Below are positions 2,523-20,078 of a stretch of 22,887 nucleotides of DNA, one piece after another (positions within the stretch are counted from its first letter, which is position 1; every line of letters starts with the position of its first letter). The stretch lies in IMG/VR virus record IMGVR_UViG_3300032893_000022; one strand, written 5' to 3'. A program made the position numbers and the translations under genes. The DNA is from an uncultured virus (IMG/VR IMGVR_UViG_3300032893_000022). Taxonomy: Duplodnaviria > Heunggongvirae > Uroviricota > Caudoviricetes. A model generated the notes under the pieces. That model was not told the origin of the DNA. It worked only from the letters and a program-made list of their open reading frames with translations, and made no database searches.

Positions 2523-2710
2523 TTACTAATCCTTATCCCATAAATTTCTTTAGAAACATCCACAAAACTATCTACTTTATAACCTTCAGCTTCTAAAGTA
2601 TCACAAACCAAAGCACTTTCTTCGATTAAATTGACATCTTTATTTGTTACAACTACAGGAAATGATTTAGCTTCTTGCACCATTGTTAACACTTTTTCCA
2701 ACACGTTCAT
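2519..2710 (-). CDS. Hypothetical protein
   Basis: AAGGAG RBS 6 nt before ATG 2710. Overlaps the upstream gene by 44 nt. Confidence 0.6.
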   Translation of the reverse strand: MNVLEKVLTMVQEAKSFPVVVTNKDVNLIEESALVCDTLEAEGYKVDSFVDVSKEIYGIRISK

Positions 2711-3521
2711 CCTTTACTCCTTCTGGAAGAGGAGTGGCGTCGCTATAGAGTCTTATTTCTATAAAATCGAAATCACCACTAACAACTGAACAATAAGTTT
2801 CACCCATTCCAGGGCGTTTAATTGTTCCAATTGTATTTCCAAAATATTTCTTTTTGGGATCTAATTGCTTAGTTTCCCAAAGATTTTTCCACATATTATC
2901 AATAATAAGATCTTTAAGTAATTCATATGCTTTATCAGGATATTTTAATAATTCTTTTACATCCAAAGGTCTTAGAGCAACTCTATCTACGTAAGTATCT
3001 TTATATAAATTATCATAATTTAAAGAAGCAATTCCAGGTTTATTAAGATTAAAAGCTTCTTGATTATTACTTTTAATTCTTGTAACTCCTGGTTTATATT
3101 CAAATTTTTCAGGAATACTCACTTTATTTGTCATTGCGCCATCATTGTCTAATTTATAACCTTTTGTAATAAGTTGTAAAGCTCTCTCAATATCCTTTAA
3201 AATAGCGTTTAAAGGCTCTATTAGGCTCTCTGCTGGGATTTCTCCGTTAGGAGCTTCAAAGGGATTAACCTTTACAGGAACAACTTTCCCGGGCTTTATA
3301 ACGATTGGGGGTTGACCATTGGATTTAATAAGAACTGGTTCTGGAAGATCTTCCTCTTCTTCAACAACTTTCTTTTTCCTGGGTTTACGAGCTTTTACAC
3401 GTTCTTTATATTCAGCTAAAGCTTTTAAACGAGCTGCTTCTTCAGCCGCAGCTTCTTCAGGTGTTTTAGCTTTATCTAGGGACTCCCCCGTCTCGGGGTT
3501 ATATTTCATAACAGGAGCCAT
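2667..3521 (-). CDS. Hypothetical protein with low-complexity Glu/Lys/Pro-rich N-terminus
   Basis: 284-aa ORF with GGAG RBS and its own predicted promoter. No family recognised. Confidence 0.75.
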   Translation of the reverse strand: MAPVMKYNPETGESLDKAKTPEEAAAEEAARLKALAEYKERVKARKPRKKKVVEEEEDLPEPVLIKSNGQPPIVIKPGKVVPVKVNPFEAPNGEIPAESLIEPLNAILKDIERALQLITKGYKLDNDGAMTNKVSIPEKFEYKPGVTRIKSNNQEAFNLNKPGIASLNYDNLYKDTYVDRVALRPLDVKELLKYPDKAYELLKDLIIDNMWKNLWETKQLDPKKKYFGNTIGTIKRPGMGETYCSVVSGDFDFIEIRLYSDATPLPEGVKDERVGKSVNNGARS

Positions 3522-3524
3522 TAT

Positions 3525-3950
3525 TTATTCTCCAATTGAAGATTTAACATTAACACTTATAGTAACAGGTTCTTCTTGTTTTGTCAACTCTTTATCTTGT
3601 TCTTGTTCAATTTCTTTTTGTAAAAGAGCTAACATTCTCCAGGCAGCTTTTGCAGTATGACGTTTACCATCTGTGTCTATAGTGCCTCTTTGAAGGAAAT
3701 GACGCATACAAGTATCTGCTTCATCGCCAGATTTACTTCTAGTCCAACGTAATGGAAGTCCTGGATTATGTTGATCATTTCCAGCTTTAGATATTTCAGA
3801 TATAGCCACTATAGCATCAGGAAAGTAATCTAATACTCCACTAGCTATTGGAAAATTCTTTCGGGATTGGGCATCGTTTGGAAGAGATGTAGCTCTAGTT
3901 GGAGCGCCACCTTCTCCACGCATTCGGTTTTTTTCTCTTTCGTCACTCAT
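3525..3950 (-). CDS. dATP/dGTP diphosphohydrolase-domain protein (DUF5664-like)
   Basis: RKNFPIASGVLDYFPDAIVAISEISKAGNDQH...W...MRHF...DTDGKRHTAKAAWRMLALLQ fits this phage family. Confidence 0.75.
   Translation of the reverse strand: MSDEREKNRMRGEGGAPTRATSLPNDAQSRKNFPIASGVLDYFPDAIVAISEISKAGNDQHNPGLPLRWTRSKSGDEADTCMRHFLQRGTIDTDGKRHTAKAAWRMLALLQKEIEQEQDKELTKQEEPVTISVNVKSSIGE
3559..3587 (-). promoter_or_regulatory. Sigma70-type promoter with extended -10, embedded in the 3' end of the upstream gene
   Basis: TTGACA (3587-3582), 17-nt spacer AAACAAGAAGAACCTGT, TACTAT (3564-3559). TGn precedes the -10. Confidence 0.65.
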
Positions 3951-5552: not shown

Positions 5553-5799
5553 ATTTACCTTTATTTGCGAGTATTTGCTTATGGTGTGACAAATGAATAT
5601 CCAAAATCATCTTACTATCTTCAATACATAAAAGAGTTTCTTGTAAAGAAGTATATTCTCTAAAAGGTTTTAAACCTTGATGAGCTAAAGTAAGTATATG
5701 GATTACTTTTTCAAGATCCTTTACAATTCTTTTGGCTTTTTTATATTTATTAAAATCATTAATGGAAGTCAGAATTATCTCCTTCCAAATACTTTTCAC
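5545..5799 (-). CDS. Hypothetical protein (start uncertain)
   Basis: 84-aa ORF from GTG overlapping the ligase 3' end. Confidence 0.5.
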   Translation of the reverse strand: MKSIWKEIILTSINDFNKYKKAKRIVKDLEKVIHILTLAHQGLKPFREYTSLQETLLCIEDSKMILDIHLSHHKQILANKGKCE

Positions 5800-6934
5800 T
5801 TAACCATTTAACACACTTCTTATTAGAAGGCATAAAATCATCATTATAATTATATCGAGATTTTATGACAATACCTTCGCGTACTTTTTGTTTTTCACAA
5901 TATACACTTGGGCCTTTTGTTAAATCATAAGCAATTTCTTTATTAAATTTTCCATAATACAATCTAGAAACCATATCAAATCCACGAGTTTGTGCATAAT
6001 ATTCAACTTCTTCAGGATTTAACCATTTAGTAGTTCCATCTTCTTGAAGAACTTTTACGTCAAACAAAACAAAGTGATGTTCTTTATGTCCATAATCATA
6101 ATTCTTTTGAATACCTTCACCAATTAATTCACCGTAGATAATTTCTCCAGGCTTTATTTTTTCAAAAGCTTTAACACGTTCAAGAACTTTACCATAAACA
6201 TTTTCACCATACCATCCAGTATATCCACGACGTTCTTGTAATTGAACATTATTACTTCCATAACAATGCTCATATTGAGGAGCAAGTTTTAAAAGTTTAA
6301 GGATTTTCTTCCAAAGAGTATTGGCTTTAAAAGGAAGAATTGCAGCTCTACAACAAGAACCATGAAGTTTTTCTTGGATAACAACTTCTTCATCTTCTTT
6401 AAAGAGTTCTGGATACCATTTAATATTCTCGACTCCATTGTATTTATGGAAATAAGGATTTTCTTTGGGTTTATCACGGGGAGTTATAGATCTTTGATAG
6501 GTAGCTTCGGGAGGTTGGTATTTTGTTATTCCAAGTGTATTAGATAAATCATATTCAAGTAAATCTGGATCGTTAATTTCTAACCAGGCATATTTAGTTG
6601 AATCTAATGCAATCATTCCATCTTCAGAAACATCTTCTATATCAATAATCATTCCTTGAGAATAGTGGCCGCAGATCTTGATTTGACGTACTCTTGAATT
6701 ATTAAGTTTAATTTTAGAATCAACTGGAAATAATTTTTTTTCTAAATCGAAAGGAAGAATACTATCAATTGGAACATATATAACTTTGTCTCCAACTTTA
6801 TATTCATTTTTACGAACAATAACATTAAAGTCATATACTTTTACATATTCAAGAGCTGTTGCATTTGGATGAGGGAAGATTTCTTTAATCGTTGTTATTG
6901 GAACTTTATGGGTACTTCCTTCTTGTTCACTCAT
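5759..6934 (-). CDS. ATP-dependent RNA ligase, DRB0094/Rnl5-like, with N-terminal OB-fold
   Basis: N-terminal HPNATALE...YKVGDKVIYVPIDS...SQG. Nucleotidyltransferase motifs QEKLHGS, IYGELIG, FVLFDV, REGIVIK. Confidence 0.88.
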   Translation of the reverse strand: MSEQEGSTHKVPITTIKEIFPHPNATALEYVKVYDFNVIVRKNEYKVGDKVIYVPIDSILPFDLEKKLFPVDSKIKLNNSRVRQIKICGHYSQGMIIDIEDVSEDGMIALDSTKYAWLEINDPDLLEYDLSNTLGITKYQPPEATYQRSITPRDKPKENPYFHKYNGVENIKWYPELFKEDEEVVIQEKLHGSCCRAAILPFKANTLWKKILKLLKLAPQYEHCYGSNNVQLQERRGYTGWYGENVYGKVLERVKAFEKIKPGEIIYGELIGEGIQKNYDYGHKEHHFVLFDVKVLQEDGTTKWLNPEEVEYYAQTRGFDMVSRLYYGKFNKEIAYDLTKGPSVYCEKQKVREGIVIKSRYNYNDDFMPSNKKCVKWLSEKYLEGDNSDFH

Positions 6935-7059
6935 TTGTTAACCTCACAAAAAGGATTCCATTGACTGTTTCCAAAATAATATGCACTAGAACAAGAAAGA
7001 ATGATAATAAAAAATGATATCATAATAAATGTGCCAATTAAAAAGAAAATATTTTTCAT
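6931..7059 (-). CDS. 42-aa hydrophobic (single TM/signal) protein
   Basis: Not in ORF track. MKNIFFLIGTFIMISFFIIILSCSSAYYFGNSQWNPFCEVNK*. ATGA-coupled at both ends. Confidence 0.6.
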   Translation of the reverse strand: MKNIFFLIGTFIMISFFIIILSCSSAYYFGNSQWNPFCEVNK

Positions 7060-7262
7060 TTCATCTCCAACAATTTTTTAAGATCTTTCTTGGAAAAAAG
7101 TTTTCTGGGTCTTCCACGTTTTCCGGTTTTAATTGTCCAGGTTGATAATTCCATTATTAATTCTAATCTTCCTGCCATTGTTCGAGGTATTTTATTACCT
7201 AATTCTATTGAAATAGCTGCCGCACTTTTTAAGCTTTTTTCTGAATTATTTCGATTACTCAC
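7056..7262 (-). CDS. Small basic protein with AT-hook-like motif
   Basis: Contains KRGRPRK. Confidence 0.55.
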   Translation of the reverse strand: MSNRNNSEKSLKSAAAISIELGNKIPRTMAGRLELIMELSTWTIKTGKRGRPRKLFSKKDLKKLLEMK

Positions 7263-7842
7263 TTAAAACTCCAGCTTCAATCGTTTCTACCAAGATATGT
7301 AATATTAACATATGTAGCTCTTGAATTCTATCACTATTTTTTCCAGGAACGATTATATAATTATTTATTAAATTTTTTATTCTTCCACCATCTTTACCTA
7401 ATAAAGCAAAACTTTTAAGAAGTTTTTTATTGGCCGATGTTATAACTTTACAAATATTCTCAGAATTTCCACTAGTTGACAAGACAATTAAAAGATCTTC
7501 GGGTTTAGCTAAAGCTTCAAATTCTCTAGAAAACACTTCTTCAAATCCAAAATCATTAGAGACACAGGTTAAATGGGCTGGATTACTTCCTAATGCGACC
7601 GCTGGGAGGGATTTTCTATCATTCCTATACCTTCCAGTCAATTCCTCGGCAAAGTGCATAGCATCAGCGTGGGAGCCTCCATTACCACATATAAAGATTT
7701 TCCCTCCATTTTTTATTGTTTCTATAGCTAAGATGGATAATTTTTGAAGTTTGCTATAAACTTCAGGCCCTGAATAATAAAATTCTTTGAGATACATTCT
7801 TGCGTCAGACAAAGATTCTAACCAAATATCGTTAAGATTCAT
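7255..7842 (-). CDS. gmhA: Sedoheptulose-7-phosphate (phosphoheptose) isomerase
   Basis: CGNGGSHADAMHFAEELTGRY, NDFGFEEVFSR, LSTSGNS, LGKDGG, DRIQELH are typical GmhA motifs. Start reassigned to ATG 7842 (MNLNDIW) to avoid a long overlap. Confidence 0.93.
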   Translation of the reverse strand: MNLNDIWLESLSDARMYLKEFYYSGPEVYSKLQKLSILAIETIKNGGKIFICGNGGSHADAMHFAEELTGRYRNDRKSLPAVALGSNPAHLTCVSNDFGFEEVFSREFEALAKPEDLLIVLSTSGNSENICKVITSANKKLLKSFALLGKDGGRIKNLINNYIIVPGKNSDRIQELHMLILHILVETIEAGVLSE

Positions 7843-8671
7843 TTTTAGCCGCCAATAATAAATGTACATTATGAGAAAATTCTTCAAAAGTTGGGGCATA
7901 GCATCCTAGATGCTTTACAGATTCTCCGGCGGCTATACAAGCAATATCCATCGCCCATTCTTCGGTTTCACCTTTAGCTAATTCGCTTGTGAACCAGGAA
8001 ACAAATGTATCGCCTGCGCCAGTTACATCTACAACATTATCTACTCTATGTTGCACATGATAATCTTCGTAATCCTTTCGCATTAAAACTGCACCATTTT
8101 CTCCAATAGTTTTTAAAATTTTATAATCGTTACGTTTAGGAAAAAGTTTATTATATTCACTTTGATTAACTTTTAAATAATCAACACCACAATAAAAGGA
8201 AGATCCTCGACTTTTATGACCATCAGCTATAATTACAGCCTTTGGATTGTAATTTCTAATCGCTTTAATAATTTCTTGAATAAATTCTTCTGTAAAGAAG
8301 CCTTTGTTATAATCTTGAAGAATAACTGCATTTACATCTTTATTACTTTTTATAAATCGTAAAAGAAGGGATTTTTCCATTTTCGAGAGTTCATCAGTAT
8401 TGTCTTCATCAATTCTATAAAGATAATGCTTACCTGCATAATATCTATTTTTCTTTGTTGTTGGATATTCAAAGTTATCTTTTGTATAGCTTATGACTTC
8501 ATTGCCCGCAGCTTCAAGATTTCTAATGACATTTCCAGACATTCCAGGAATTTCTTCTTTAGATTCTATGGAGAATATAGGAATAGGAGCTTCTGGAGAG
8601 ATTTTATGGACATTGCCATAATAATTTACGTCCACGCATATATCTCCTAAGACTAAAATTCTATTAGCCAC
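7832..8671 (-). CDS. Stand-alone D-glycero-D-manno-heptose-7-phosphate kinase (HldE/RfaE domain I, PfkB family)
   Basis: ILVLGDICVD..YYG..KISPEAPIP, PGMSGNV, VILQDYNKG, DVTGAGDT. No C-terminal adenylyltransferase domain. Confidence 0.88.
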   Translation of the reverse strand: MANRILVLGDICVDVNYYGNVHKISPEAPIPIFSIESKEEIPGMSGNVIRNLEAAGNEVISYTKDNFEYPTTKKNRYYAGKHYLYRIDEDNTDELSKMEKSLLLRFIKSNKDVNAVILQDYNKGFFTEEFIQEIIKAIRNYNPKAVIIADGHKSRGSSFYCGVDYLKVNQSEYNKLFPKRNDYKILKTIGENGAVLMRKDYEDYHVQHRVDNVVDVTGAGDTFVSWFTSELAKGETEEWAMDIACIAAGESVKHLGCYAPTFEEFSHNVHLLLAAKNES

Positions 8672-9269
8672 GAGTTATATCCTCAAATTTATCTAAATAT
8701 GTAAATCCTACATTCTTTAAATCTAAACATTTTACATTAGAAAAAAGTTCTTGTCCATAAGATTTCTTGAATCCAATTAAACCCCACGCTGAATATTTTG
8801 TGTCATTGGATAAGTAATCAGGTTTTTCTAATAAAACATATCTAGGAGTTATGATGCCCCATTTATCTGGGTCTGTAACCTCGTGTAAGGCTATTACAGC
8901 GTTGTTTCCAAGTTCAAGGCCACGTTGTATATCTTGTATACATTTAAAGCTGCTAAATCGAGTGTCTGGAAGAATTAACATATTATTTTCAACCCAGTGA
9001 TCTTTAGAAGCTAAAACAGTTTCATTCCATTCACCTTTTACTTCTATATCTATAAACTCAACTCCTTGATTAAAAAGATATTGTCTAAGATCTTGTTTTT
9101 CCTTACGAGTTATGACAAGAGGTTCCATTTTAAAAGCTTTACAAAGATCTAGAGCATATTGGATGATAGGTTGATGTTTATATCCAGGATCTGGAAGCAT
9201 TTCTTTGGATTTATTCATTGCCATGGACATTCGGGTTCCGAAGCCCGCAGCTGGAATTATACACTTCAT
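8664..9269 (-). CDS. Sugar-phosphate nucleotidyltransferase (RmlA/HddC-like NTP_transferase fold)
   Basis: IIPAAGFGTRM...KEMLP...PIIQY, LILPDT, WGII...EKP. Start at ATG 9269 is ATGA-coupled to the upstream stop. Confidence 0.82.
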   Translation of the reverse strand: MKCIIPAAGFGTRMSMAMNKSKEMLPDPGYKHQPIIQYALDLCKAFKMEPLVITRKEKQDLRQYLFNQGVEFIDIEVKGEWNETVLASKDHWVENNMLILPDTRFSSFKCIQDIQRGLELGNNAVIALHEVTDPDKWGIITPRYVLLEKPDYLSNDTKYSAWGLIGFKKSYGQELFSNVKCLDLKNVGFTYLDKFEDITRG

Positions 9270-9535
9270 ATGTATTTTTTCCAATCAATTTCATCTTGCC
9301 AATTACCTTCAGTAAATCCCATAATTCGATAAAATTTTCCATTTAAAAAATCATAAGAATGACAAGTTCCATATGATCCTTGAACTTCAAAACCCATTGC
9401 ATTCCAATCAAATTCTTCATCTTCATTACCATCAAAATCAGCTTTTCTTCCAGAATAATCTTGAATTCTAACATCTAATCCTTTTTCATGGAGACGTTTA
9501 AAAAATTCTTTTGCTAATTTAAGATCTGTTTTCAT
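9266..9535 (-). CDS. Hypothetical acidic protein inside the sugar cluster
   Basis: 89 aa, ATGA-coupled on both sides. Confidence 0.6.
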   Translation of the reverse strand: MKTDLKLAKEFFKRLHEKGLDVRIQDYSGRKADFDGNEDEEFDWNAMGFEVQGSYGTCHSYDFLNGKFYRIMGFTEGNWQDEIDWKKYI

Positions 9536-10374
9536 TTAACTTTCTCCGCGTAATCTCTAAGAAATTCTAAAAAATCACCTTCGGCTTTATAACGATTTTG
9601 GTGAGTACTGATATTTTCAGGATGATTAAGATCTAACCCACTATATTGAAAACAAGTTAATTCATGAAAATAATTACCCATTATATTAGAATCATTTAAA
9701 ATTGTATATCTGTTATTTAATTTCATAAAATTTCCTGGTTTATATCTCCAATAAGCATAATTATATCCTGGATCTCTAAGTATTCTAACCTTATCCACAA
9801 AAAAAGGCAAGAAATTTAACCAACTTTGATCTAGATAGGTTTCTTTTGTTGTTTTAACCTTTGTTTTCATTATTTCATCTTGCCATTCCAAGAACTTAAT
9901 AATTTCTGGACAATTTCTAAAGGATATAACATCTGTTGAAATATGTCCAGTGAAACTTACTGAAGCATTACTAGGAAATTTATCATCTTCTGGAAGGGGT
10001 TCTAGGATATGAGGAGTAACTACTGCTTGACATGTATTTCCATAAATAAATGGATCTATTAATTTATTTGGAAATTGAAAAAATTCAACTTTAGCTCCGA
10101 GAAAAACTACTACATCATATCCTTCTTTAAAAGTTTCCAAAACTGCTCTAGCTCTTAAACTACAAATGCGTTCTAATCTATTATAAGAAGGATCACATTC
10201 ATTATACCAGTCATTTATATGAATATATTGATCATAATCTAATTGTCTTTGATCATTGCCTATATAAAAAAACATTTGTTTATAATATGGAGCGTGTTTT
10301 TTTAAAGAATTATATAATACGTCGTAGTATTTTAAGTACTCCTCGCTGCATATAGCAATAAAACAAACTTTCAT
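9532..10374 (-). CDS. GT-A-fold glycosyltransferase-like protein
   Basis: N-terminal AICSEEYL...LYNSLKKH, VTPHILEP, FLEW, DQSWLNFLP...ILRDPGYNYAYW...FQYSG resemble a widespread bacterial GT-A (GT8-like) family. Confidence 0.7.
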   Translation of the reverse strand: MKVCFIAICSEEYLKYYDVLYNSLKKHAPYYKQMFFYIGNDQRQLDYDQYIHINDWYNECDPSYNRLERICSLRARAVLETFKEGYDVVVFLGAKVEFFQFPNKLIDPFIYGNTCQAVVTPHILEPLPEDDKFPSNASVSFTGHISTDVISFRNCPEIIKFLEWQDEIMKTKVKTTKETYLDQSWLNFLPFFVDKVRILRDPGYNYAYWRYKPGNFMKLNNRYTILNDSNIMGNYFHELTCFQYSGLDLNHPENISTHQNRYKAEGDFLEFLRDYAEKVK

Positions 10375-10922
10375 AGTTTTTGAATCACCAATTCTATTTC
10401 ATATTGACCAGGACTATGTACTTCTTCGGGCGTTGAATAATCATGACCTTTGTCATTATCTTGCAAGTGACGAACTCTAAAACCATTAACAGAAAGCGCG
10501 TCTTCAAATTCTTTCAATAAATTAGACGGTCGATAAAACACTTTATGATCTTGGTTCCAACGACTAGGCAACTGGGCTCTTTTTTCATATAAATCTTGAT
10601 GTGGCACCACAGTAATAATATATCCGCCAGATTTTACGACTCTAAACCATTCTCTAATAACTTCCGCACGATTAGAAATGTGCTCTAAAACATGGGAAGA
10701 ATAGACATGTTGTTGAGAATTATCTGGAAATGGAAGATGAATTCCGTCATAGCCAGGATAATTAAGATCTACTCCAATGGCACCAGCTAAAATTGGCACA
10801 ACATTTTCTTCATAACCTTTATATCCAATATCAAGACCGTTGCCCCACATATATTTTAGAAAAAACCCATTGGAAAGCTTTTCGACATAGGTTTTTTTAG
10901 ATTCTCCACCTACGTTTCTCAT
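10371..10922 (-). CDS. Class I SAM-dependent methyltransferase
   Basis: GLDIGYKG (motif I), LPFPDNS..VYSSHVLEHI, EWFRVVKSGGYI..VVP. Confidence 0.88.
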   Translation of the reverse strand: MRNVGGESKKTYVEKLSNGFFLKYMWGNGLDIGYKGYEENVVPILAGAIGVDLNYPGYDGIHLPFPDNSQQHVYSSHVLEHISNRAEVIREWFRVVKSGGYIITVVPHQDLYEKRAQLPSRWNQDHKVFYRPSNLLKEFEDALSVNGFRVRHLQDNDKGHDYSTPEEVHSPGQYEIELVIQKL

Positions 10923-11101
10923 AAAATATTCTTTTTAATTTTTTCATATTCATCTAATGATATTTTATAAGATAAATTTGAATAAAAAGATTCTTTCATT
11001 TTTATTTCTACATAATTGTTATATTTAGACAAATAATGTATTTCGGCAATTGGAATCATTCTTGTGTGCTCATTAATATCAGTAAATTCTAAAAATTTCA
11101 C
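10919..11101 (-). CDS. Hypothetical protein, weak LytTR-like pattern
   Basis: IPIAEIHYLSKYNNYVEIKM...KISLDEYEK. Confidence 0.45.
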   Translation of the reverse strand: MKFLEFTDINEHTRMIPIAEIHYLSKYNNYVEIKMKESFYSNLSYKISLDEYEKIKKNIL

Positions 11102-12048
11102 AAAACCTTCTCCAAAGCTTCGATAAAATCTTCCACTCTCAAAGATTTAATCATTTCGTAATCTCCATAATAACAAAAACGGAGATCCACGTCAAAAAGA
11201 AAATCTATATTGGATTGAAAAAATCTATCTATACAGGTTTCTGGAGGAACAATTGGATAACAATTCCACCCAAGTTGATTGTTTCTATATGGTAAACGAA
11301 GATGTGGAGCTACACTAGTATAAGCACTAATTATAGGAGTATCGGTACATCCAGCAACATGGAGCAATCCATTATCAAGTCCAATAATGCATTTACTTCC
11401 CGCAATAATTTTTCCAGCTTCCAAAAGACTAGTTTTATCAACTAAACTTATACCTTTTGTGTAATCTATTTCATTGTTGAAATTTCCAATAATATCATCA
11501 ACTCCAGAGACTCCAGTATTTGCTTGACGACTTCCAAGAAAAACCACTGGCATATTTCTTTCATTGAGATATTTAACAATTGCGTTGACTTTTTCAGGAA
11601 GAAACTCACGGATTTTTGCAGTAAAGCCTGTGGTTATTACTACATAATCTTTCGGTAAATCAAACTTCTCAATTTTTATTGGATTCAAATCTAGTTTAAG
11701 ATAATTTTTATGTTCAGGACCAACTTGTTTATTAGCTAAACAATTAAAATTATAATCCACCAAATGTGTAGATAAACTATCATGTCCTTTAAGACGAGTT
11801 TGACGACCTGGCCAATTACTATTGAATGATTTCTTCATCTTTGAAAAAGATCTAATAATCATATTAGGTAACATATTTCTAGCCAATGGTAGGAAATAAT
11901 CAGGAACATAAAGATAAGGAACAACCCATGGATAGGTATCTTGGATAAATTTCATTGCAGGAAGTGCGGCTATGTTGTCCCCCATCCCACCTGTGTTTAA
12001 AACAAAATTCACGTTAACTCTTGGGAATTCCGTTCCTTTTCTAAGCAA
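11098..12048 (-). CDS. Glycosyltransferase family 9 (heptosyltransferase-like, GT-B fold)
   Basis: GGMGDNIAALPAMKFI, VVFLGS, SLVDKTSLLEAGKIIAGSKCIIGLDNGLLHVAGCTDTPIISAY match the WaaC/WaaF GD... and DSG..H.A motifs. Confidence 0.88.
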   Translation of the reverse strand: MLRKGTEFPRVNVNFVLNTGGMGDNIAALPAMKFIQDTYPWVVPYLYVPDYFLPLARNMLPNMIIRSFSKMKKSFNSNWPGRQTRLKGHDSLSTHLVDYNFNCLANKQVGPEHKNYLKLDLNPIKIEKFDLPKDYVVITTGFTAKIREFLPEKVNAIVKYLNERNMPVVFLGSRQANTGVSGVDDIIGNFNNEIDYTKGISLVDKTSLLEAGKIIAGSKCIIGLDNGLLHVAGCTDTPIISAYTSVAPHLRLPYRNNQLGWNCYPIVPPETCIDRFFQSNIDFLFDVDLRFCYYGDYEMIKSLRVEDFIEALEKVL

Positions 12049-12349
12049 GTTTCTTTAAATCCTTTTCGGAAAAATATGTGTCTAAACTCATATCTTTATA
12101 AAATAATTCTACTCTTACAAAATTTCTTTTATCTTTAAAATCATCATCTTGAGCACCATATCCAACAACTAAACCTTTAAGTTTCACTCTACGAGCTTTA
12201 GATAAAAGCCACATTGCAATTTCTTCGTAATATTCTTTCCTAAATTCCCTAGTACTAGGTGTTTCAAAAACTTCTACAATATGTTCAGTATGCCAACTAT
12301 GACATTTAGCGGTTAATTGAACTTTGTCTCCGGGTTTTAATTTATTCAT
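12041..12349 (-). CDS. Hypothetical protein (possible SH3/KOW-like barrel)
   Basis: LKPGDKVQL...KGLVVGY...VRVELF...FSEKDL pattern. Confidence 0.55.
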   Translation of the reverse strand: MNKLKPGDKVQLTAKCHSWHTEHIVEVFETPSTREFRKEYYEEIAMWLLSKARRVKLKGLVVGYGAQDDDFKDKRNFVRVELFYKDMSLDTYFSEKDLKKLA

Positions 12350-13017
12350 CTTAAATTCTCCAATAATTCCTTATTTTTTTTAAGTGTATAATTTGGAAAC
12401 ATTTTTATATCTATAACCTTAGCAAATATTTTAACAGTATCGTGAAGTTTTTTCAAGAGTTTTGTTTGAGAATAATTACCATCAAAATTTTCTACAAGAG
12501 ATAAACTATCGTCTTCTTTAAAATAAACCCATATCCTATTACCTTCAACATATTCTGTATTATCTATTGCATCTCTAATCTTGGATTCATTGGTTCTTGG
12601 GGAATTCATAGTTTTGTCAGTAATTGTCTTTCTTGCAGCAAATCGTTTAATATCTTTTATATCCAAAATCTCTTTGGCATACTTATTGTATAAATCTAGA
12701 TAATTATCATTATCATTAAGCATTAAATTTAACATTTCTTTAATAAATTCACGCAAAGCTAATTCTTTTCCTGGGGCTTTTATGGCAGATCCTTTATATT
12801 TGATTTCACCTTTTTCATCTAAGAGAACATAATTTTTAGCTTTTAAAATTATAACCTTTTTGTAATAACCGTCATCACTCCAAGTCATAAACTCTGGAGA
12901 TTTATCGTTAATATCCTTAATAAAAGCTTTTCGTTCTTCTAAGGGAATAAAAGAACCATCTGGTTTACAAAATGAGATCGAATCTGTGTCTACATTGGCT
13001 ATTTGAAAGTTATTCAC
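12346..13017 (-). CDS. Family B DNA polymerase, C-terminal part (motif C, palm/thumb)
   Basis: IANVDTDSISF (motif C), KAKNYVL...KYKGS. Likely start GTG 13017 overlaps the mini-gene TGA (GTGA); the ORF track starts at TTG 13035. Confidence 0.88.
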   Translation of the reverse strand: MNNFQIANVDTDSISFCKPDGSFIPLEERKAFIKDINDKSPEFMTWSDDGYYKKVIILKAKNYVLLDEKGEIKYKGSAIKAPGKELALREFIKEMLNLMLNDNDNYLDLYNKYAKEILDIKDIKRFAARKTITDKTMNSPRTNESKIRDAIDNTEYVEGNRIWVYFKEDDSLSLVENFDGNYSQTKLLKKLHDTVKIFAKVIDIKMFPNYTLKKNKELLENLR

Positions 13018-13115
13018 TTCTTTTTTCTCATACAAGCTTTAGAACAAATATCAGGATATTCCATAGATGATTTGAAATATTCCCTACCACAAACTTTACA
13101 CTTCACTAGACTCAT
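13014..13115 (-). CDS. 33-aa four-Cys (zinc-finger-like) mini-protein between the two PolB halves
   Basis: Not in ORF track. AAGGAG (13128-13123) lies 7 nt before ATG 13115. MSLVKCKVCGREYFKSSMEYPDICSKACMRKKK* (CxxC...CxxxC). Confidence 0.75.
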   Translation of the reverse strand: MSLVKCKVCGREYFKSSMEYPDICSKACMRKKK

Positions 13116-14643
13116 CTTTGTTCTCCTTCATATATTGCTTATAAAATTCCATATCTTTTCCAGAAGCCCATTTCAAACTAAATTCTATTATATCTCGCGT
13201 CTCTTTGGTAATCTTTTTTGCCATCCACAAACAATTAAAATTAAGACCAGCAGTATTACAAAGACCATATGCACTATTGATAACAATTTTATTGGCTTGT
13301 TCACGATCGTAATAATAGCGGTCTTTAGTTTCTTTATATTTATCCTTAAGCTCAAATCGTTCATAAGTAAAATGATGAACCATTTTATAGAAATTACCAT
13401 TGGGATCTTTTTCTTTATCATAAAGTTTAAAACGTAATATTTGCGAAGGATATGCAGATTTAAGATCTATCTTTATGACATTACTATATATTCCAGGAAT
13501 ACCAAAACTAATGCCCCCTTTCACATATTCAACCTCACTAGCTTTAGGAACACTATGCGCTTCTTGGATATAACTTCTCAATAAAAAAGAATTGAGTTGT
13601 GAGCCACTTGCACTACAAATCATTTCCTGAAAACTCTTTGGAACACTTTGGGAAAGATAAAACTTAGCTGGACACATTAAATCAAACAACGCAAGAGCAT
13701 CGTCGCTATCATCTACGCAATATTCTTTTATTTTGACCCATTCTTCAGGGATATGATATTTAAAGCGTATTTGATTTGCATCATAAAATGTTCGACCAGG
13801 TTTTTCAAGTTTTTCTTTATTAACAATATACTTTAATCCATAACTATCATATTTCTTTTCAACAATATCATAATCAATGGATAGAAAATAGGTATCTACA
13901 ATTTCTCGGCCATAAACTTTAGAACTTTTAAATTCAATGTCTTGAGTTTGATCTTTACGTTTATAACTTGAATATTTATTGAACTTTATGGGACTTTCAT
14001 CACGACCTAGATAAAGATTAGTTTTAAATTTCTTCGCGCGGCTATATAAATAAGGTAAATCAAAACAGAAAACATTGTGTCCAATAAGACAATCGGGATT
14101 CCAAAGTCTTACATACTCACACCAGTCATCAATCATCGCACCTTCATCTTCATAATCATCATAGGCGAATAGATGTTTATATATTTTTCCTTGGTGACGA
14201 AAGGTATTGGAAATTAAAAGGAGTTTAGCTTCGGGAATTTCAGGGTCTAAACTTGTGGTTTCTATATCAAAAGAAAGAACAGAAAGATCTTTGGGCTTTA
14301 AACCTTTATAATAAGTTAAACCTTTGTTGACCATGGAAGATTCTTTTCCATCATTAATACAAAAAACATCTTCACCATCTTGATTTAAAAAGAATTTAGC
14401 CTGTTTCATTTCAGGTAAAGTTCTATATTGCTTTCCCCATTTATAATAAAGATCACCTTTAAGTTTTACCCAAGATTTATCTATAGGATTCGCAGATAAA
14501 ATCCAGTATTTATTAGGAATGCTAGATTCTTTTAAAGATCCATCTGGAAAACGTTGCCAAATTTTTAAAGATTCAACTTCAGGCTCGATACTCGTGATAT
14601 AAGGCATAGGATCTTTACCATAGATGAGTCTTTCATTCATCAT
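13096..14643 (-). CDS. Family B DNA polymerase, N-terminal part (3'-5' exonuclease, motifs A and B)
   Basis: ExoI SFDIET, ExoII GHNVFCFDLPYL, ExoIII YCVDD, motif A KIDLKSAYPS, motif B KIVINSAYG. Lacks DTDS. Confidence 0.92.
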   Translation of the reverse strand: MMNERLIYGKDPMPYITSIEPEVESLKIWQRFPDGSLKESSIPNKYWILSANPIDKSWVKLKGDLYYKWGKQYRTLPEMKQAKFFLNQDGEDVFCINDGKESSMVNKGLTYYKGLKPKDLSVLSFDIETTSLDPEIPEAKLLLISNTFRHQGKIYKHLFAYDDYEDEGAMIDDWCEYVRLWNPDCLIGHNVFCFDLPYLYSRAKKFKTNLYLGRDESPIKFNKYSSYKRKDQTQDIEFKSSKVYGREIVDTYFLSIDYDIVEKKYDSYGLKYIVNKEKLEKPGRTFYDANQIRFKYHIPEEWVKIKEYCVDDSDDALALFDLMCPAKFYLSQSVPKSFQEMICSASGSQLNSFLLRSYIQEAHSVPKASEVEYVKGGISFGIPGIYSNVIKIDLKSAYPSQILRFKLYDKEKDPNGNFYKMVHHFTYERFELKDKYKETKDRYYYDREQANKIVINSAYGLCNTAGLNFNCLWMAKKITKETRDIIEFSLKWASGKDMEFYKQYMKENKDESSEV

Positions 14644-14645
14644 TA

Positions 14646-14966
14646 TTAATTACTCGTTCCATCTGTAGGGAGTTGACTAAGAATTTCATCAAATCCATCA
14701 CTGTCTTTAACGATATCCCCTCCAGCGATTAAATCTTTTCTTAAAAATCTTGTAATTCCATCTGGAGTATCTCCAAGATATATATAAGTATCATCAATAT
14801 CAAGAACAAAACCTCTAACGGCTAAAGGATTTTGTTGAATTAAACTACCTTCTTCACTATGATCTTCACTTTTAAAATACACCGATAAAATAAATTCAAC
14901 CTGTTGGCCCATAAAATTGGCCGCAAACACATTTTGGACAAAGTCTTGATCATCTTTTTTACTCAT
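14646..14966 (-). CDS. Hypothetical protein, possible Sm/Hfq-like beta-barrel
   Basis: Likely start ATG 14966 (MSKKDD), 1 nt after the helicase stop. GQQVEFIL...VRGFVLDIDDTYIYL...FLRKDLI. Confidence 0.55.
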   Translation of the reverse strand: MSKKDDQDFVQNVFAANFMGQQVEFILSVYFKSEDHSEEGSLIQQNPLAVRGFVLDIDDTYIYLGDTPDGITRFLRKDLIAGGDIVKDSDGFDEILSQLPTDGTSN

Positions 14967-14967
14967 A

Positions 14968-16923
14968 TTACTCCCAGGCTTTATTTGTTTCCAAAATTTC
15001 AGCAGTTTTATCATCTCTCTTTTTCTTTCTAAAAGCTCTTAGTTCTTCTACTTGTTCTTCTGTTAAAGAATTTATCTCTCCAGTTACTCCATTCCAGCTA
15101 AAATCTCCACTCCATAAACTTCCAAAACGATTTTTAACAATAGCAAAAGAAATATATCTATCATCCTCTGCATATTTAGGAGAATAACCTTCTCTCCAAA
15201 GTGTTAAAATCGTTGTACAACTTTGTTCAATAACACTCGATCCTTTAACTCCTTTTAAACTCATTAATGGATCAGATACTTCAGGAGTTGAATGTTTTTG
15301 AGTTTGGAGCAATAATAGTATACATACTTCTAGTTCATTTGCCAAGTCTTTTAAAGTATTAGCAATGAATCCAGTATTTGCAGTTTGATCTCCATAAGGT
15401 CCAGCAATACATTCTAGATAATCTACAATTACAAGCTTTACCTTCTTTCCAATAATTTCTTCTTGTTGTCTTATCATTTCTTTCATATCACTAGCAGTGA
15501 GACCAGCGCGGAAAGTAAAGTTAACATTTGTATAATCTTCCTTCATAATAGAGTTCGCAAGAAGTCTTGCTTCTTCAGGTTGTGTTTTGACAAAATTAAG
15601 AGCTTCTTTAAAATCAAATCCAGTCTTTTGTTGGATAATTTTAGCTGTTACTATAGGTTTTCCCATATCCAAAGAAAAGAAAGCTGAAGGAATTCCCATT
15701 TTAGAACTATACTTAAGATAATTCATTGCCATAGTAGTTTTACCCGCGCCAGGTTGACCAAGTAGCCCATTTAATGTAGAGGTTGCAAGTATTAGTTTTT
15801 CATCAAGTTTTACAATTCCGGTTTTAATAATATTCTTCTCAAAATCTTGTGAAAATTTCACCAAATCATCGAACATTTCGTCGAATTTAACAAAGGGTTT
15901 ATCTTCAATATTTCGATCTTTACAAGAATGTTCTCCTAATTGATTACAATAGTCTTGTAACCACCCAGCTTTTTTACAAGTATATTGACCTCCTTCCCAA
16001 CTATCCGTAAATACTGTATCTTCAATAATATTCTTATAAAGTTCAGATTTATCTGTTGTACCTTGTCCATAAAGATCAATAGAACGTCGTAATGCTCCTT
16101 TACATAAGTCATATGTCATTTCTTTAGTAAATCCTAGACCTCTACACGTTGAAGCTAATACCATCAATGCTGAATGTCTTTCTCCAGTTTTAAAATGACC
16201 TTGAGCTAAAGACCATTTACAATTCTTCCATTGAGAAGGCTTTTTAGATATATCTGTAACATCGTAATTCTTCTTAGGTTGAGTTTTTTCTTCTGGAACC
16301 ACTAACATATCCTCCGGTATTGTTATAGAGCCTTCTAGAGGCTGTAATTCTTTAGGTTCTAGGGCTAATTCTTTTATTTGTTCTATGGATGATTTATTAA
16401 GTATTGAATAAGATATAGGTATTTTGAATAAACCACTCTTTTGATGACGCGTATTAGGAATACGAAGAATTCTAGAAGCATTATAAAGCCCCTTATCCAA
16501 CGTTTTTAAATCTTTTCCTAAAATATTTAATGCTAAGTGCGCGACTTGATTAGGTGTTAAAAGTTTGGAAACTTGAAGTTTTACAGTAAATCCCTTTTGT
16601 CCCGAGAAATATAATTCAATGTTTTTAGGTTGGATATGAAATTGCTCACGAAGTCTTTGGACAAGAGTTAATGCATCTTTACGAGCTAGTTCTAAATCAT
16701 CCTTACTATCAAAATCAAATACCAATTGATCGGTCATTACATCTTTTATACCTGATACACTTTTCTTTGCTTGAAATTGTTTAGCATGATCATCATTGTA
16801 ATAAAAAATACTTGCATAGTGATCCACGTCTGGATTTTTTACAGGAAATTTCGCTGAAGAATTTATTAAAATACCTGGATCGTCTAAGGTTTTTGTGATT
16901 CTGACATATTGAGTCATTTGCAT
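14968..16923 (-). CDS. Primase-helicase fusion (AEP-type primase, PriCT-like helix, DnaB/SF4 helicase)
   Basis: LVFDFDS, YFSGQKG, D..LYNASRILRIPNT, GERHSAL. Walker A GQPGAGKTT, FFSLDM, VIVDYL, IEQ, VKNRFG. Confidence 0.88.
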   Translation of the reverse strand: MQMTQYVRITKTLDDPGILINSSAKFPVKNPDVDHYASIFYYNDDHAKQFQAKKSVSGIKDVMTDQLVFDFDSKDDLELARKDALTLVQRLREQFHIQPKNIELYFSGQKGFTVKLQVSKLLTPNQVAHLALNILGKDLKTLDKGLYNASRILRIPNTRHQKSGLFKIPISYSILNKSSIEQIKELALEPKELQPLEGSITIPEDMLVVPEEKTQPKKNYDVTDISKKPSQWKNCKWSLAQGHFKTGERHSALMVLASTCRGLGFTKEMTYDLCKGALRRSIDLYGQGTTDKSELYKNIIEDTVFTDSWEGGQYTCKKAGWLQDYCNQLGEHSCKDRNIEDKPFVKFDEMFDDLVKFSQDFEKNIIKTGIVKLDEKLILATSTLNGLLGQPGAGKTTMAMNYLKYSSKMGIPSAFFSLDMGKPIVTAKIIQQKTGFDFKEALNFVKTQPEEARLLANSIMKEDYTNVNFTFRAGLTASDMKEMIRQQEEIIGKKVKLVIVDYLECIAGPYGDQTANTGFIANTLKDLANELEVCILLLLQTQKHSTPEVSDPLMSLKGVKGSSVIEQSCTTILTLWREGYSPKYAEDDRYISFAIVKNRFGSLWSGDFSWNGVTGEINSLTEEQVEELRAFRKKKRDDKTAEILETNKAWE

Positions 16924-18836: not shown

Positions 18837-19556
18837 TTATTTGTTCAATTCCCAGCATCTTTTTAGTAATAAAGAATTCATATATTTGGCAGCCGAAATA
18901 GATGTTCCAGTTAACTTTCCAACTTGATTTTTAGGTAATAAAACAGGTACATCGACTCCCATTTCCGATCTTGCGTTTGGATGTGTGAGATAATTACTTC
19001 TATAATCTAATTTTTCGTTTTTATCTATATTTTGAACAACAAATAAATTGGGAAACAAATAACACGCGGGAAAGGCTCCTTTACATTCGCCAGTTTGTGT
19101 TAAATTTTTAGATTGATTACCAGCGGCTACCGTAATTATTACACCTTTATCTGTTAAACTCTTTATAAGCTCTTTTTCTTTTTCATTTGACTCTTCACCA
19201 GTAGAAGAATAATTAATATAGTTAATATTTTCATTTAAAGCGCGTCTAAAACAGTTATTTGAGGGTTCAATATAATTTCGATCCCAAGGAAAATAATATC
19301 TACAACTAACTAGTTCAATTTGATTACAAGTTTCTTTTAAAATAAGACCAGCGATGGCTGTTCCATGGCCATTATCATCTAAATAATTAAGATCCCAAGG
19401 TTCTTTTACGTGTGATTTAATTTCTTTATGAGAAGTATCGACACCTGTATCTATAACTAAGACTTTAATTCGTTCTTGAGCATCAGATACCATACTAATC
19501 CATAGACAAACAAGAATAGCAGTAATTATAAGAAATATTTCGTTAATTTTATTCAT
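18837..19556 (-). CDS. Subtilisin-like (S8) serine protease with N-terminal signal/TM segment
   Basis: Catalytic motifs VLVIDTGVD, DDNGHGTAIAG, VAAGN, LTGTSISAA. Hydrophobic N-terminus. Confidence 0.9.
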   Translation of the reverse strand: MNKINEIFLIITAILVCLWISMVSDAQERIKVLVIDTGVDTSHKEIKSHVKEPWDLNYLDDNGHGTAIAGLILKETCNQIELVSCRYYFPWDRNYIEPSNNCFRRALNENINYINYSSTGEESNEKEKELIKSLTDKGVIITVAAGNQSKNLTQTGECKGAFPACYLFPNLFVVQNIDKNEKLDYRSNYLTHPNARSEMGVDVPVLLPKNQVGKLTGTSISAAKYMNSLLLKRCWELNK

Positions 19557-19559
19557 TGT

Positions 19560-20078
19560 CTATAATTTACCACAATCTTTTAGAAAATGATATGTATTTT
19601 TAATCCAAGAGAAAAAATCTCCTTGTGGATCTATATGTTTAAAATAATTACAGCGTTTACAAGAAGTTACACAATTTTCTAATGTATATCCTTTATTATT
19701 ATCTATTCTATCAATTCCATTATAGATACATTTACTTTTTTGACATTTATTTGCGTCTGAATACATGGTTTGTTTGGGAATTGAATTACAATAATAACAA
19801 TTTTTAGAAATAAAATTTTCAAATTGTTCAACAGATAAATTCCATTCTAAATTTCTTTTTTTAGCTCCATGTTTATACTTAGAATATAAAGTATTAAATC
19901 CAGCCATTTTAGAATTTTTTGTTCGACATCCACAAGTTTTAATATTTCCAGTTAATATATCATATTTTTTAGCTTTTTTCTCTTTTCCACAACGACATTT
20001 TAAAAGATAAAAATATCCTTCCATTTTTTCTAGAACAGTTAAATAGTTATATTCTTTTCCAATTTCTAATTCAATCAT
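19560..20078 (-). CDS. HNH-type (homing) endonuclease-like protein
   Basis: IGKEYNYLTV...KCRCG...TCGC, then CYYC...GIDRIDNNKGYTLENCVTSCKRCN. Confidence 0.78.
   Translation of the reverse strand: MIELEIGKEYNYLTVLEKMEGYFYLLKCRCGKEKKAKKYDILTGNIKTCGCRTKNSKMAGFNTLYSKYKHGAKKRNLEWNLSVEQFENFISKNCYYCNSIPKQTMYSDANKCQKSKCIYNGIDRIDNNKGYTLENCVTSCKRCNYFKHIDPQGDFFSWIKNTYHFLKDCGKL

Follow-up and report, generated by a model that had tools for sequence, protein, structure and literature searches.

An uncultured phage of the Caudoviricetes carries, directly downstream of its family-B DNA polymerase (PolB) gene, a gapless block of sugar genes that we tentatively read as an early auxiliary cassette, one whose two sub-modules may together attach a short, decorated sugar chain to an acceptor accessible from the cytoplasm. 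The phage is represented here by a stretch of 22,887 nucleotides (nt) from IMG/VR record IMGVR_UViG_3300032893_000022, which we call the window. An annotation made earlier from the sequence alone (the initial annotation) had picked out eight contiguous genes at positions 7255–12048, and all eight open reading frames (ORFs) are present there on the minus strand, amid phage replication genes. From the polymerase side, the predicted products are a family GT9 glycosyltransferase (hereafter GT9), a 60-aa protein, an S-adenosylmethionine (SAM) methyltransferase (MTase), a 280-aa protein with a glycosyltransferase fold of the GT-A type, an 89-aa protein, a sugar-1-phosphate nucleotidyltransferase (NTase), a heptose-7-phosphate kinase and the sedoheptulose-7-phosphate isomerase GmhA. 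Neighboring genes mostly overlap by 4 or 8 nt, apart from a short gap ahead of GmhA should that gene start at Met20, and the coupled block extends beyond the eight to a 102-aa ORF on the polymerase side and a basic 68-aa ORF on the other. All of the cassette genes appear to be translationally coupled to PolB, which is itself split.

Two of the products appear, from family profiles and solved structures, to be bona fide homologs of GmhA and of the HldE-type kinase, as initially annotated. GmhA scored 205.9 bits (3.3e-61) against TIGR00441, 3.5 bits below the cut-off of 209.45, aligned over its whole chain with the solved GmhA of Vibrio (1x94, 7.7e-50) and E. coli (2i22, 4e-49) ahead of DiaA (1.3e-30), and matched phrog_14703 (3.6e-51). 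It most likely starts at Met20 (position 7842) rather than at 7899, because the profile alignments begin there. For the kinase, the best family was rfaE_dom_I (TIGR02198; 1.7e-50, 172 bits versus a cut-off of 345), the closest solved relative was Burkholderia HldA (4e84, 1.6e-15) and the matching PHROG was phrog_8133 (9e-45). The kinase also matched 37 phage records, mostly cyanomyoviruses, with 27–34% identity among the 30 matches listed; a single-protein pattern scan of IMG/VR found no relatives of it, and a scan of metagenome (JGI) contigs found only relatives at 33% identity or less. For the nucleoside diphosphate (NDP)-heptose pathway that the initial annotation had proposed, the window supplies GmhA and the kinase and lacks GmhB and HldC: its ORFs yielded no HAD, CTP_transf_like or epimerase match that could represent GmhB, HldC or HldD. 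Nor did the window resemble the GDP-heptose route: the kinase is of the PfkB type and not of the GHMP type (HddA), and the NTase scored 17 bits against the HddC model NF049965, whose cut-off is 300. Together, the phage GmhA and kinase may boost the host's supply of ADP-heptose.

The enzyme that would use this donor is a GT9 protein, as first proposed. It matches Pfam PF01075 (Glyco_transf_9) over residues 93–258 with 55.8 bits, above the gathering score of 22, and the family profile places its N-terminal GD and C-terminal DxGLxH motifs on the GD and DxGxxH motifs of WaaC/WaaF. Across 32 aligned family members, G23 and D24 are nearly invariant and D225, G227 and H230 are invariant; the Asp of the GD motif presumably corresponds to the catalytic Asp of WaaC. 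The protein has the GT-B fold and lies closest to solved GT9 enzymes, with Foldseek TM-scores normalized to the query (TMq) of 0.72–0.74 for TibC, 0.66 for 3tov, 0.62 for WaaF and 0.55–0.57 for WaaC. Against solved sequences, the family profile found WaaF at 2.6e-8 and WaaC at 0.011, and no TibC chain at E ≤ 10.

GT9 has intact donor-side motifs and falls outside both named subfamilies, the lipopolysaccharide (LPS) heptosyltransferase equivalogs and the bacterial autotransporter heptosyltransferases (BAHT) TibC and AAH. The models for LPS heptosyltransferases I and II are matched by all 32 aligned members, far below their curated cut-offs, and the window protein misses the equivalog thresholds accordingly (36.9 versus 134.6 bits for TIGR02195, 30.6 versus 185.3 for TIGR02193 and 31.8 versus 467 for NF007742). 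On the BAHT side, it is one of three of the 32 members that fail to match the model TIGR04414 (hepto_Aah_TibC) at E ≤ 0.01. It also lacks a match to the TibC_1st domain (PF21129), the structure alignment beginning at TibC residue 74, and none of the window ORFs matched an autotransporter or adhesin family. In the family alignment, Cys predominates at four C-terminal positions (22, 24, 28 and 22 of the 32 members), where the window protein reads D, F, C and M; it and its closest relatives keep only one Cys of the four. These positions would correspond to the four-Cys iron-finger of TibC/AAH (4RAP, 4RB4). Neither the fold nor the sequence of GT9 tells the class of its acceptor. Judged indirectly, by its co-occurrence with heptose-precursor genes in the window and in the relative G005, it is a predicted heptosyltransferase that likely uses ADP-heptose.

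This enzyme belongs to a large, essentially phage-only clade. There are 253 word-indexed homologs, many on contigs of 55–91 kb. An exhaustive profile search found 3,555 proteins with E-values up to 1e-3; 677 remained with a limit of 1e-10, and 382 (clusters at 50% identity) with a limit of 1e-30. Relatives in 185,579 species genomes were confined to 35 loci, several on short contigs of metagenome-assembled genomes, with the best full-length relative 28% identical. As a lead only, the ESM Atlas neighbors of the protein are 90–100% viral. A tblastn search of 50,697 deposited phage records returned nothing, and a single-protein pattern scan of IMG/VR found no relatives. One of the 150 best profile hits (P0223; 638 aa, E 8e-93) combines a GT9 of this clade and a polysaccharide pyruvyl transferase in a single protein. 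Viral fusions of GT9 with an FkbM methyltransferase, GT8, GT2 and GT4 are also hinted at by the Atlas and were unconfirmed by sequence search, as a search for longer (fused) homologs found none.

To compare gene neighborhoods, we used 24 IMG/VR loci retrieved with the GT9 family alignment (L loci) and the full records behind them (G records), of which nine of 24 are at least 90% complete. Pfam was run on 188 ORFs of at least 110 aa within ±4.5 kb of the GT9 gene in 21 loci, excluding three near-duplicates (L009, L023 and L024) and the GT9 ORFs themselves. A methyltransferase lay near GT9 in six of the 21 (Methyltransf_11 in L003, L004 and L010, TylF in L005, FkbM in L018 and L026) and a polysaccharide pyruvyl transferase in two (L005 and L017). 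The recurrent partner of this GT9 thus appears to be a sugar-decorating enzyme, and the link between glycosylation and methylation that had been suggested for the window gains backing from its relatives. MTases of the window type, with 50–65% identity, occur in four of the 24 records (G001, G002, G005 and G010). Full-length members of the 280-aa family occur in three (G001, G004 and G008), with N-terminal fragments in G012 and G015, and the window-type NTase is found in the same three, adjacent to the GT-A gene each time. (A census with PF00483 gave 0/24 and missed known NTase homologs; it was discarded as insensitive and a protein query used instead.) Moreover, the hit lists for GT9 and the GT-A protein share 22 equal "longest contig" lengths, counting the window, an indirect proxy that suggests that the two genes often occur together in the subclade to which the window belongs.

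One relative, L003 (76.6 kb), is syntenic with the window in tblastn searches with 32 window proteins. Its order is primase-helicase, unsplit PolB, GT9, MTase, an HNH insertion, GT-A, NTase, RNA ligase and an exonuclease block, and the window GmhA and kinase have no tblastn match in it. The insertion (L003:11936-12529) is an HNH endonuclease gene between the MTase and GT-A genes, homologous to window 19560–20078; because it sits inside the L003 cassette, the cassette seems to tolerate mobile insertions. In the complete 89-kb L004, an MTase–GT9 pair lies in a region (8040–12423) where the flanking genes encode an RtcB RNA ligase, a protein with a Tad2-like (Thoeris anti-defence 2) domain and a homolog of IMP dehydrogenase/GMP reductase.

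A second relative, G005, speaks to the heptose genes. This complete 47-kb phage with a PolA-type polymerase carries a GT9 of the same clade and an MTase 61% identical to that of the window, and it is the only one of the 24 records with a GmhA (SIS_2), a PfkB kinase or an HldC-type CTP_transf_like protein. Its heptose proteins match rfaE_dom_I (5.3e-37), GmhA (1.6e-43) and rfaE_dom_II (2.9e-21), and it has neither an NTase nor a GT-A match. Where the heptose nucleotidyl step is phage-encoded in these relatives, it is thus performed by a canonical ADP-forming enzyme. Identity to the window proteins is as low as 27% for the G005 kinase and 34% for its GmhA, so the two sets are separate acquisitions, and two lineages with this GT9 and MTase have gained heptose-precursor genes independently.

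The remaining enzymes of the cassette can be assigned with varying resolution. Among solved structures, the MTase comes nearest to 6uv6, a D-glucose O-methyltransferase, with a weak match (4.6e-4); because the recurrent partners of GT9 in relatives decorate sugars, the MTase may be a sugar O-methyltransferase. The 280-aa protein gave a confident predicted model (pLDDT 90.2) for which Foldseek found, in the PDB, the GT-A fold nearest family GT6 (E 1.4e-8 to ~1e-7; TMq 0.44–0.53 and target-normalized TMt up to 0.62 for a3GalT, BoGT6a and GTA/GTB) and, in BFVD, viral GT34/GT8/GT6-like proteins of uncultured phages and giant viruses. The initial GT-A call is therefore supported by fold and unaccompanied by any family match: the protein has no Pfam match, none of 61 homologs has a precomputed Pfam domain, DUF1647 is found weakly in 8 of 33 relatives and Nucleotid_trans in one of 33, the family profile gave only chance matches to PDB sequences (E > 1), and tblastn against the 50,697 phage records returned nothing. 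The model points to a GT-A-fold transferase resembling GT6, GT8 and GT34. The NTase matches galU (TIGR01099, 6.7e-9), solved GalU (2.3e-5), and HddC at only 3.5e-3, with a weak PF00483 match (1e-4); its closest relatives are GalU and RmlA, and its fold is not that of the HldC cytidylyltransferase. It probably starts at the ATG at 9269.

We think that the cassette is probably laid out in two branches, because the NTase tracks the GT-A gene and not the heptose genes, and G005 uses an HldC-type enzyme. The earlier proposal that the NTase activates heptose does not fit this distribution: it is found only in the three of 24 records with a full-length GT-A, always next to it. In the heptose branch, phage GmhA would turn sedoheptulose-7-phosphate into heptose-7-phosphate, the HldA-type kinase would yield the beta-1,7-bisphosphate, and host GmhB and HldC/HldE, possibly with HldD, would finish ADP-heptose. 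The phage-clade GT9 would then transfer the heptose and the adjacent SAM methyltransferase would O-methylate the transferred sugar. In the second-sugar branch, the GalU-fold NTase would activate a sugar-1-phosphate, probably of a hexose, for transfer by the GT6-like GT-A enzyme. The acceptor could be an anionic glycolipid in the envelope of a Gram-negative host, such as the nascent LPS core or else a glycan linked to a lipid, and remodeling of the envelope would alter the cell surface during infection, giving superinfection exclusion or keeping progeny off debris. Gene identities, folds, motifs, synteny and co-occurrence come directly from the sequences; the donor sugars, the order of steps, the completion of missing steps by the host and the acceptor are the parts of this scheme that we infer.

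Several of our own observations weigh against this scheme, some touching its branches and others its acceptor. The gene order NTase-kinase-GmhA mirrors the adenylyltransferase-kinase-isomerase order of cyanophage P-SSM2; G004 and G008 are near-duplicates, and the co-occurrence of NTase and GT-A comes from few independent lineages; and HldC or GmhB, like ThyS or a dioxygenase, could sit in the other ~62 kb of the genome. Because the gene order mirrors that of P-SSM2, we retain, as a distinctly less probable alternative, a linear pathway in which the GalU-fold NTase replaces HldC/HddC and, with GmhA and the kinase, makes NDP-heptose for GT9 and perhaps the GT-A enzyme, giving the phage a largely self-sufficient route. 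Such a pathway would fit with the three genes being consecutive (the NTase and kinase genes overlap by 8 nt), with the NTP_transferase fold that the NTase shares with the GDP-heptose enzyme HddC, its weak match, and with the lack of an HldC-type gene in the window. However, all three records with the NTase lack GmhA and the kinase and have the NTase beside GT-A, the only other GT9 phage with heptose genes (G005) uses rfaE_dom_II, the best matches of the NTase are GalU and RmlA, and GmhB would still be absent from the window. The chemistry also counts against it: the product of PfkB-type kinases is the beta-anomer, but enzymes of the RmlA/GalU/HddC fold act on alpha-D-sugar-1-phosphates.

As to the acceptor, we lean toward an envelope glycolipid over a protein on split evidence, holding the former as a tentative first choice, the latter as rather less likely and a nucleic acid as improbable, with the remaining probability left to other acceptors. 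Counted for the envelope are the sequence affinity of GT9 to WaaF/WaaC, its basic N-domain (isoelectric point [pI] 9.6, versus 5.05 for the C-domain), the solubility of the enzymes, their early expression and the polysaccharide-type decorating partners. The pI of the N-domain is compatible with a Kdo2-lipid A/inner-core acceptor without being specific for it, and, judged by the cut-offs above, GT9 is apparently no equivalog of any LPS heptosyltransferase (WaaC, WaaF or WaaQ). If instead GT9 acts as TibC and AAH do, it would O-heptosylate a protein of the virion or some other protein made by the phage or its host, and the GT-A enzyme and MTase would extend and cap the sugar, which we consider doubtful. 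The protein heptosyltransferase TibC is the marginal top structural match of GT9, with 3tov tied within 1 Z. The Aah/TibC model TIGR04414 is weakly matched by 29 of the 32 family members (best 1.7e-11), and the Cys cluster is present in most relatives. Packaging or portal genes lie near GT9 in four of the 21 loci (L011, L012, L013 and L021), and proteases of three families in seven (Trypsin_2 in L008; Peptidase_C1 in L012 and L013; Peptidase_S8 in L005, L014, L017 and L020). The proteases could point to a protein as the substrate or reflect synteny of the backbone. Set against all of this, the window GT9 itself fails the BAHT-specific features.

The initial annotation had also raised phage DNA as an acceptor, an idea that rested on adjacency to PolB. 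On this proposal, GT9 and its partners would put a methylated, heptose-containing glycan on phage DNA (or RNA) as a shield against nucleases. There is precedent in heptosyl- and di-heptosyl-5-hydroxymethylcytosine (5hmC) DNA made by phage gene clusters (bioRxiv 10.1101/2023.12.21.572611). GT9 is within ±4.5 kb of a DNA polymerase in six of the 21 loci, of either family (PolB in L003 and L004; PolA in L008, L010, L016 and L018), as well as in the window. The basic N-domain would also suit a nucleic acid. Genes for MazZ-like dGTP_diPhyd_N proteins are present in the window, L014 and L017, and in the window, L003 and L004 the cassette has an RNA-repair ligase gene next to it. However, no ThyS, C5-methyltransferase (C5-MTase) or Tet_JBP match was found among the window ORFs. 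The 24 related records gave ThyS in one, C5-MTase in two, TGT in none and Tet_JBP in none, this last census being one without a positive control. With the published entry enzymes for glycosylating DNA missing from the window and uncommon in relatives, DNA is an unlikely target, and the adjacency argument is weakened. It would take a route without a ThyS homolog or C5-MTase/TET pair for the phage-only GT9 clade to be a nucleic-acid glycosyltransferase placing methyl- or pyruvyl-capped heptose on DNA, which strikes us as improbable; if true, it would explain both the placement beside two unrelated DNA polymerase families and the basic acceptor domain.

The genes of the block and the two replication genes nearest to it are listed in Table 1. 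The 102-aa ORF has no Pfam, PHROG or NCBIfam match and no homolog in L003 by tblastn, the 60-aa ORF has no match in these family collections or, by tblastn, in relatives, and the 68-aa ORF has no Pfam or PHROG match. None of the cassette proteins has a membrane-spanning segment; all are soluble.

Table 1. Genes of the coupled block and neighboring replication genes in the window
Feature	Position	Strand	Remarks
Primase-helicase	14968-16923	same strand as rest of window	family/PHROG scans
Family-B DNA polymerase (PolB), two ORFs	12346-14643	(-)	family scans
102-aa ORF	12041-12349	(-)	overlaps stop of C-terminal PolB ORF by 4 nt and GT9 start by 8 nt
GT9-family glycosyltransferase, GT-B fold	11098-12048	(-)	PF01075, 55.8 bits
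60-aa ORF	10919-11101	(-)	4-nt overlaps on either side
Class I SAM methyltransferase	10371-10922	(-)	Methyltransf_11, 4.8e-11
Predicted GT-A-fold glycosyltransferase, 280 aa	9532-10374	(-)	predicted structure
89-aa acidic ORF	9266-9535	(-)	no match in Pfam, PHROG or NCBIfam
Sugar-1-phosphate nucleotidyltransferase, GalU/RmlA/GlmU-N fold	8664-9284, probable start 9269	(-)	PF00483, 1e-4
PfkB heptose-7-phosphate kinase (HldA/HldE-type)	7832-8671	(-)	rfaE_dom_I, 1.7e-50
GmhA, sedoheptulose-7-phosphate isomerase	7255-7842, ORF open to 7899	(-)	TIGR00441, 205.9 bits
68-aa very basic ORF, pI 10.8	7056-7262	(-)	overlaps GmhA stop by 8 nt

The window, with ~30% GC, covers an early and replication region of a phage that is read from one strand. 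It also encodes Erf, a PD-(D/E)XK exonuclease, a polymerase-type 3′-5′ exonuclease, dUTPase, endonuclease VII, two HNH endonucleases and one RNA ligase, and a tRNA scan found no tRNA genes in it. Promoter- and terminator-like sites in the window show no excess over shuffled expectation, the minus strand has no terminator-like site from 16944 to 6284, and the cassette is part of an early replication operon. The nearest deposited PolB proteins, those of Salinibacter phages, are ~27% identical, which places the phage in an uncultured lineage, and a DNA-level search of phages with the window gave a single 249-bp match at 68% identity. An identical copy of the GT9 protein is recorded on one contig of 85,012 bp, and our view covers 22.9 of the 85 kb of the phage genome.

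If a host LPS locus had been mis-assembled into a phage contig, the cassette would be an artefact, which we consider very unlikely. GmhA is ~50% identical, as read off the alignment, to gammaproteobacterial GmhA, and, as no close relative of the kinase was found in IMG/VR or the JGI contigs, the junctions of GmhA and the kinase are without a second assembly. A single sequencing run, a wetland metagenome that is probably the source, contains this DNA, and no RNA run is listed for it. However, the block shares its 4- or 8-nt overlaps with phage genes at both ends, its GC (0.32–0.33) and GC at third codon positions (0.19–0.22) equal those of its neighbors, its flanking genes are in the order of L003, and GmhA and the kinase match phage PHROGs. 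In addition, independent phage contigs carry the same core of GT9, MTase, GT-A and NTase genes. The synteny with IMG/VR phage contigs and uniform composition bear out the initial view that the cassette is phage-borne.

Other features of the region were noted in passing. PolB is split between motifs B and C into ORFs of 515 and 229 aa in one frame, separated by 60 nt (13036–13095) with four stops of three kinds (TAA, TAG, TGA, TAA), which argues against recoding. A mini-ORF on the minus strand (13014–13115; 33 aa, CxxC...CxxxC) spans this gap in another frame, and the PolB homologs of L003 and L004 are unsplit (724 aa and 742 aa). The MazZ-like protein has a dATP/dGTP diphosphohydrolase N-terminal domain (PF18909, dGTP_diPhyd_N). 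Its gene is at 3525–3950 on the minus strand of the window, the window and L003 proteins are 83% identical, and it recurs near GT9 at L014:1642-2073 and L017:11466-11939. Because no PurZ-like adenylosuccinate synthetase gene was found in the 24 related records, a Z-genome is not indicated. The type of RNA ligase beside the sugar cassette differs between phages: the window has a PF09414 ligase with a PHA02142 OB domain (5759–6934, minus strand), L003 one of the T4 Rnl1 type (14194–15261) and L004 an RtcB (8040–9251). Because three ligase types occupy one position, the sequences suggest that an RNA-repair function next to the cassette has been replaced repeatedly in related phages. The window also encodes a short S8 subtilase (18837–19556, minus strand) and a 284-aa ORF (2667–3521, minus strand) that has no family, no Atlas neighbor and a poor Atlas model (pTM 0.26) and is 41% identical to L003 over residues 95–272.

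Phages carry "LPS-like" sugar genes, almost none of which have a demonstrated product or target. Here, two unrelated phages (that of the window and G005) have added heptose genes, which makes ADP-heptose a donor open to testing and offers a small number of soluble enzymes for expression. Identifying the acceptor would decide between remodeling of the host surface by lytic environmental phages, glycosylation of the phage's own proteins and a new nucleic-acid modification, and each of these outcomes bears on phage-host recognition and defense evasion.

How new is the system? The initial annotation knew of no characterized phage counterpart. Our literature search, whose scope did not extend to the contig tables of Pyle et al. 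(which possibly list GT9 clusters), returned no description of a phage GT9 or BAHT-like enzyme; phage heptose genes themselves have already been annotated in cyanophages, and heptosylated phage DNA is made with unrelated enzymes. The interest of the system lies in how large and how phage-specific the GT9 clade is and in the question of the acceptor. Cyanophage heptose genes have been annotated as host-acquired LPS genes (PMC7378029) and rfaE has been annotated in pelagimyophages (PMC7029224), in both cases without functional work in the portions of the reports drawn on here. In the cyanomyovirus trio (P-SSM2 PSSM2_309-311; S-CAM1, S-SSM7 and SynMITS9220M01), a phage GmhA and PfkB heptose-7-phosphate kinase likewise share one cluster, in the same nucleotidyltransferase-kinase-isomerase order as in the window. 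The trio, however, includes an HldC-type adenylyltransferase, a gene missing from the window, where the NTase has the GalU fold, and no GT9, GT-A or Methyltransf_11 partner is annotated in the 12.7-kb stretch of P-SSM2 viewed.

The clusters for sugar hypermodification of phage DNA likewise combine sugar-activating enzymes with GT-A and GT-B transferases and include heptose among their sugars. These clusters need a C5-MTase with 5mYOX or a ThyS homolog, neither of which is in the window. One route, to glycosylated 5-hydroxycytosine (5hoC) DNA, begins with a thymidylate-synthase homolog (PMC13326640) and the other with a C5-MTase and a TET-like dioxygenase (Pyle et al., bioRxiv 10.1101/2023.12.21.572611). 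In the same preprint, heptosyl-5hmC is made via an HAD/APH enzyme, a cytidylyltransferase and a T4-beta-GT-like GT-B, and the GT-Bs of the hypermodification clusters resemble T4 beta-GT, BshA and MshA, whereas the transferase of the window is a GT9. From the LPS heptosyltransferases WaaC, WaaF and WaaQ, this GT9 differs in an N-terminal acceptor domain that is not alignable by sequence and in belonging to a viral clade whose best full-length cellular relative is 28% identical. From the BAHT enzymes TibC and AAH (4RAP, 4RB4; TIGR04414), it differs in lacking three of the four Cys and the TibC_1st domain, in being ~90 residues shorter and in having no autotransporter substrate encoded beside it. 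A further parallel lies outside phages. Chlorovirus PBCV-1 uses virus-encoded glycosyltransferases, with a methyltransferase domain, to make a methyl-capped glycan on its major capsid protein without host glycosylation machinery. PBCV-1 thus shares with the window several viral glycosyltransferases and a sugar methyltransferase, and differs in being a eukaryotic giant virus with glycosyltransferases of other families.

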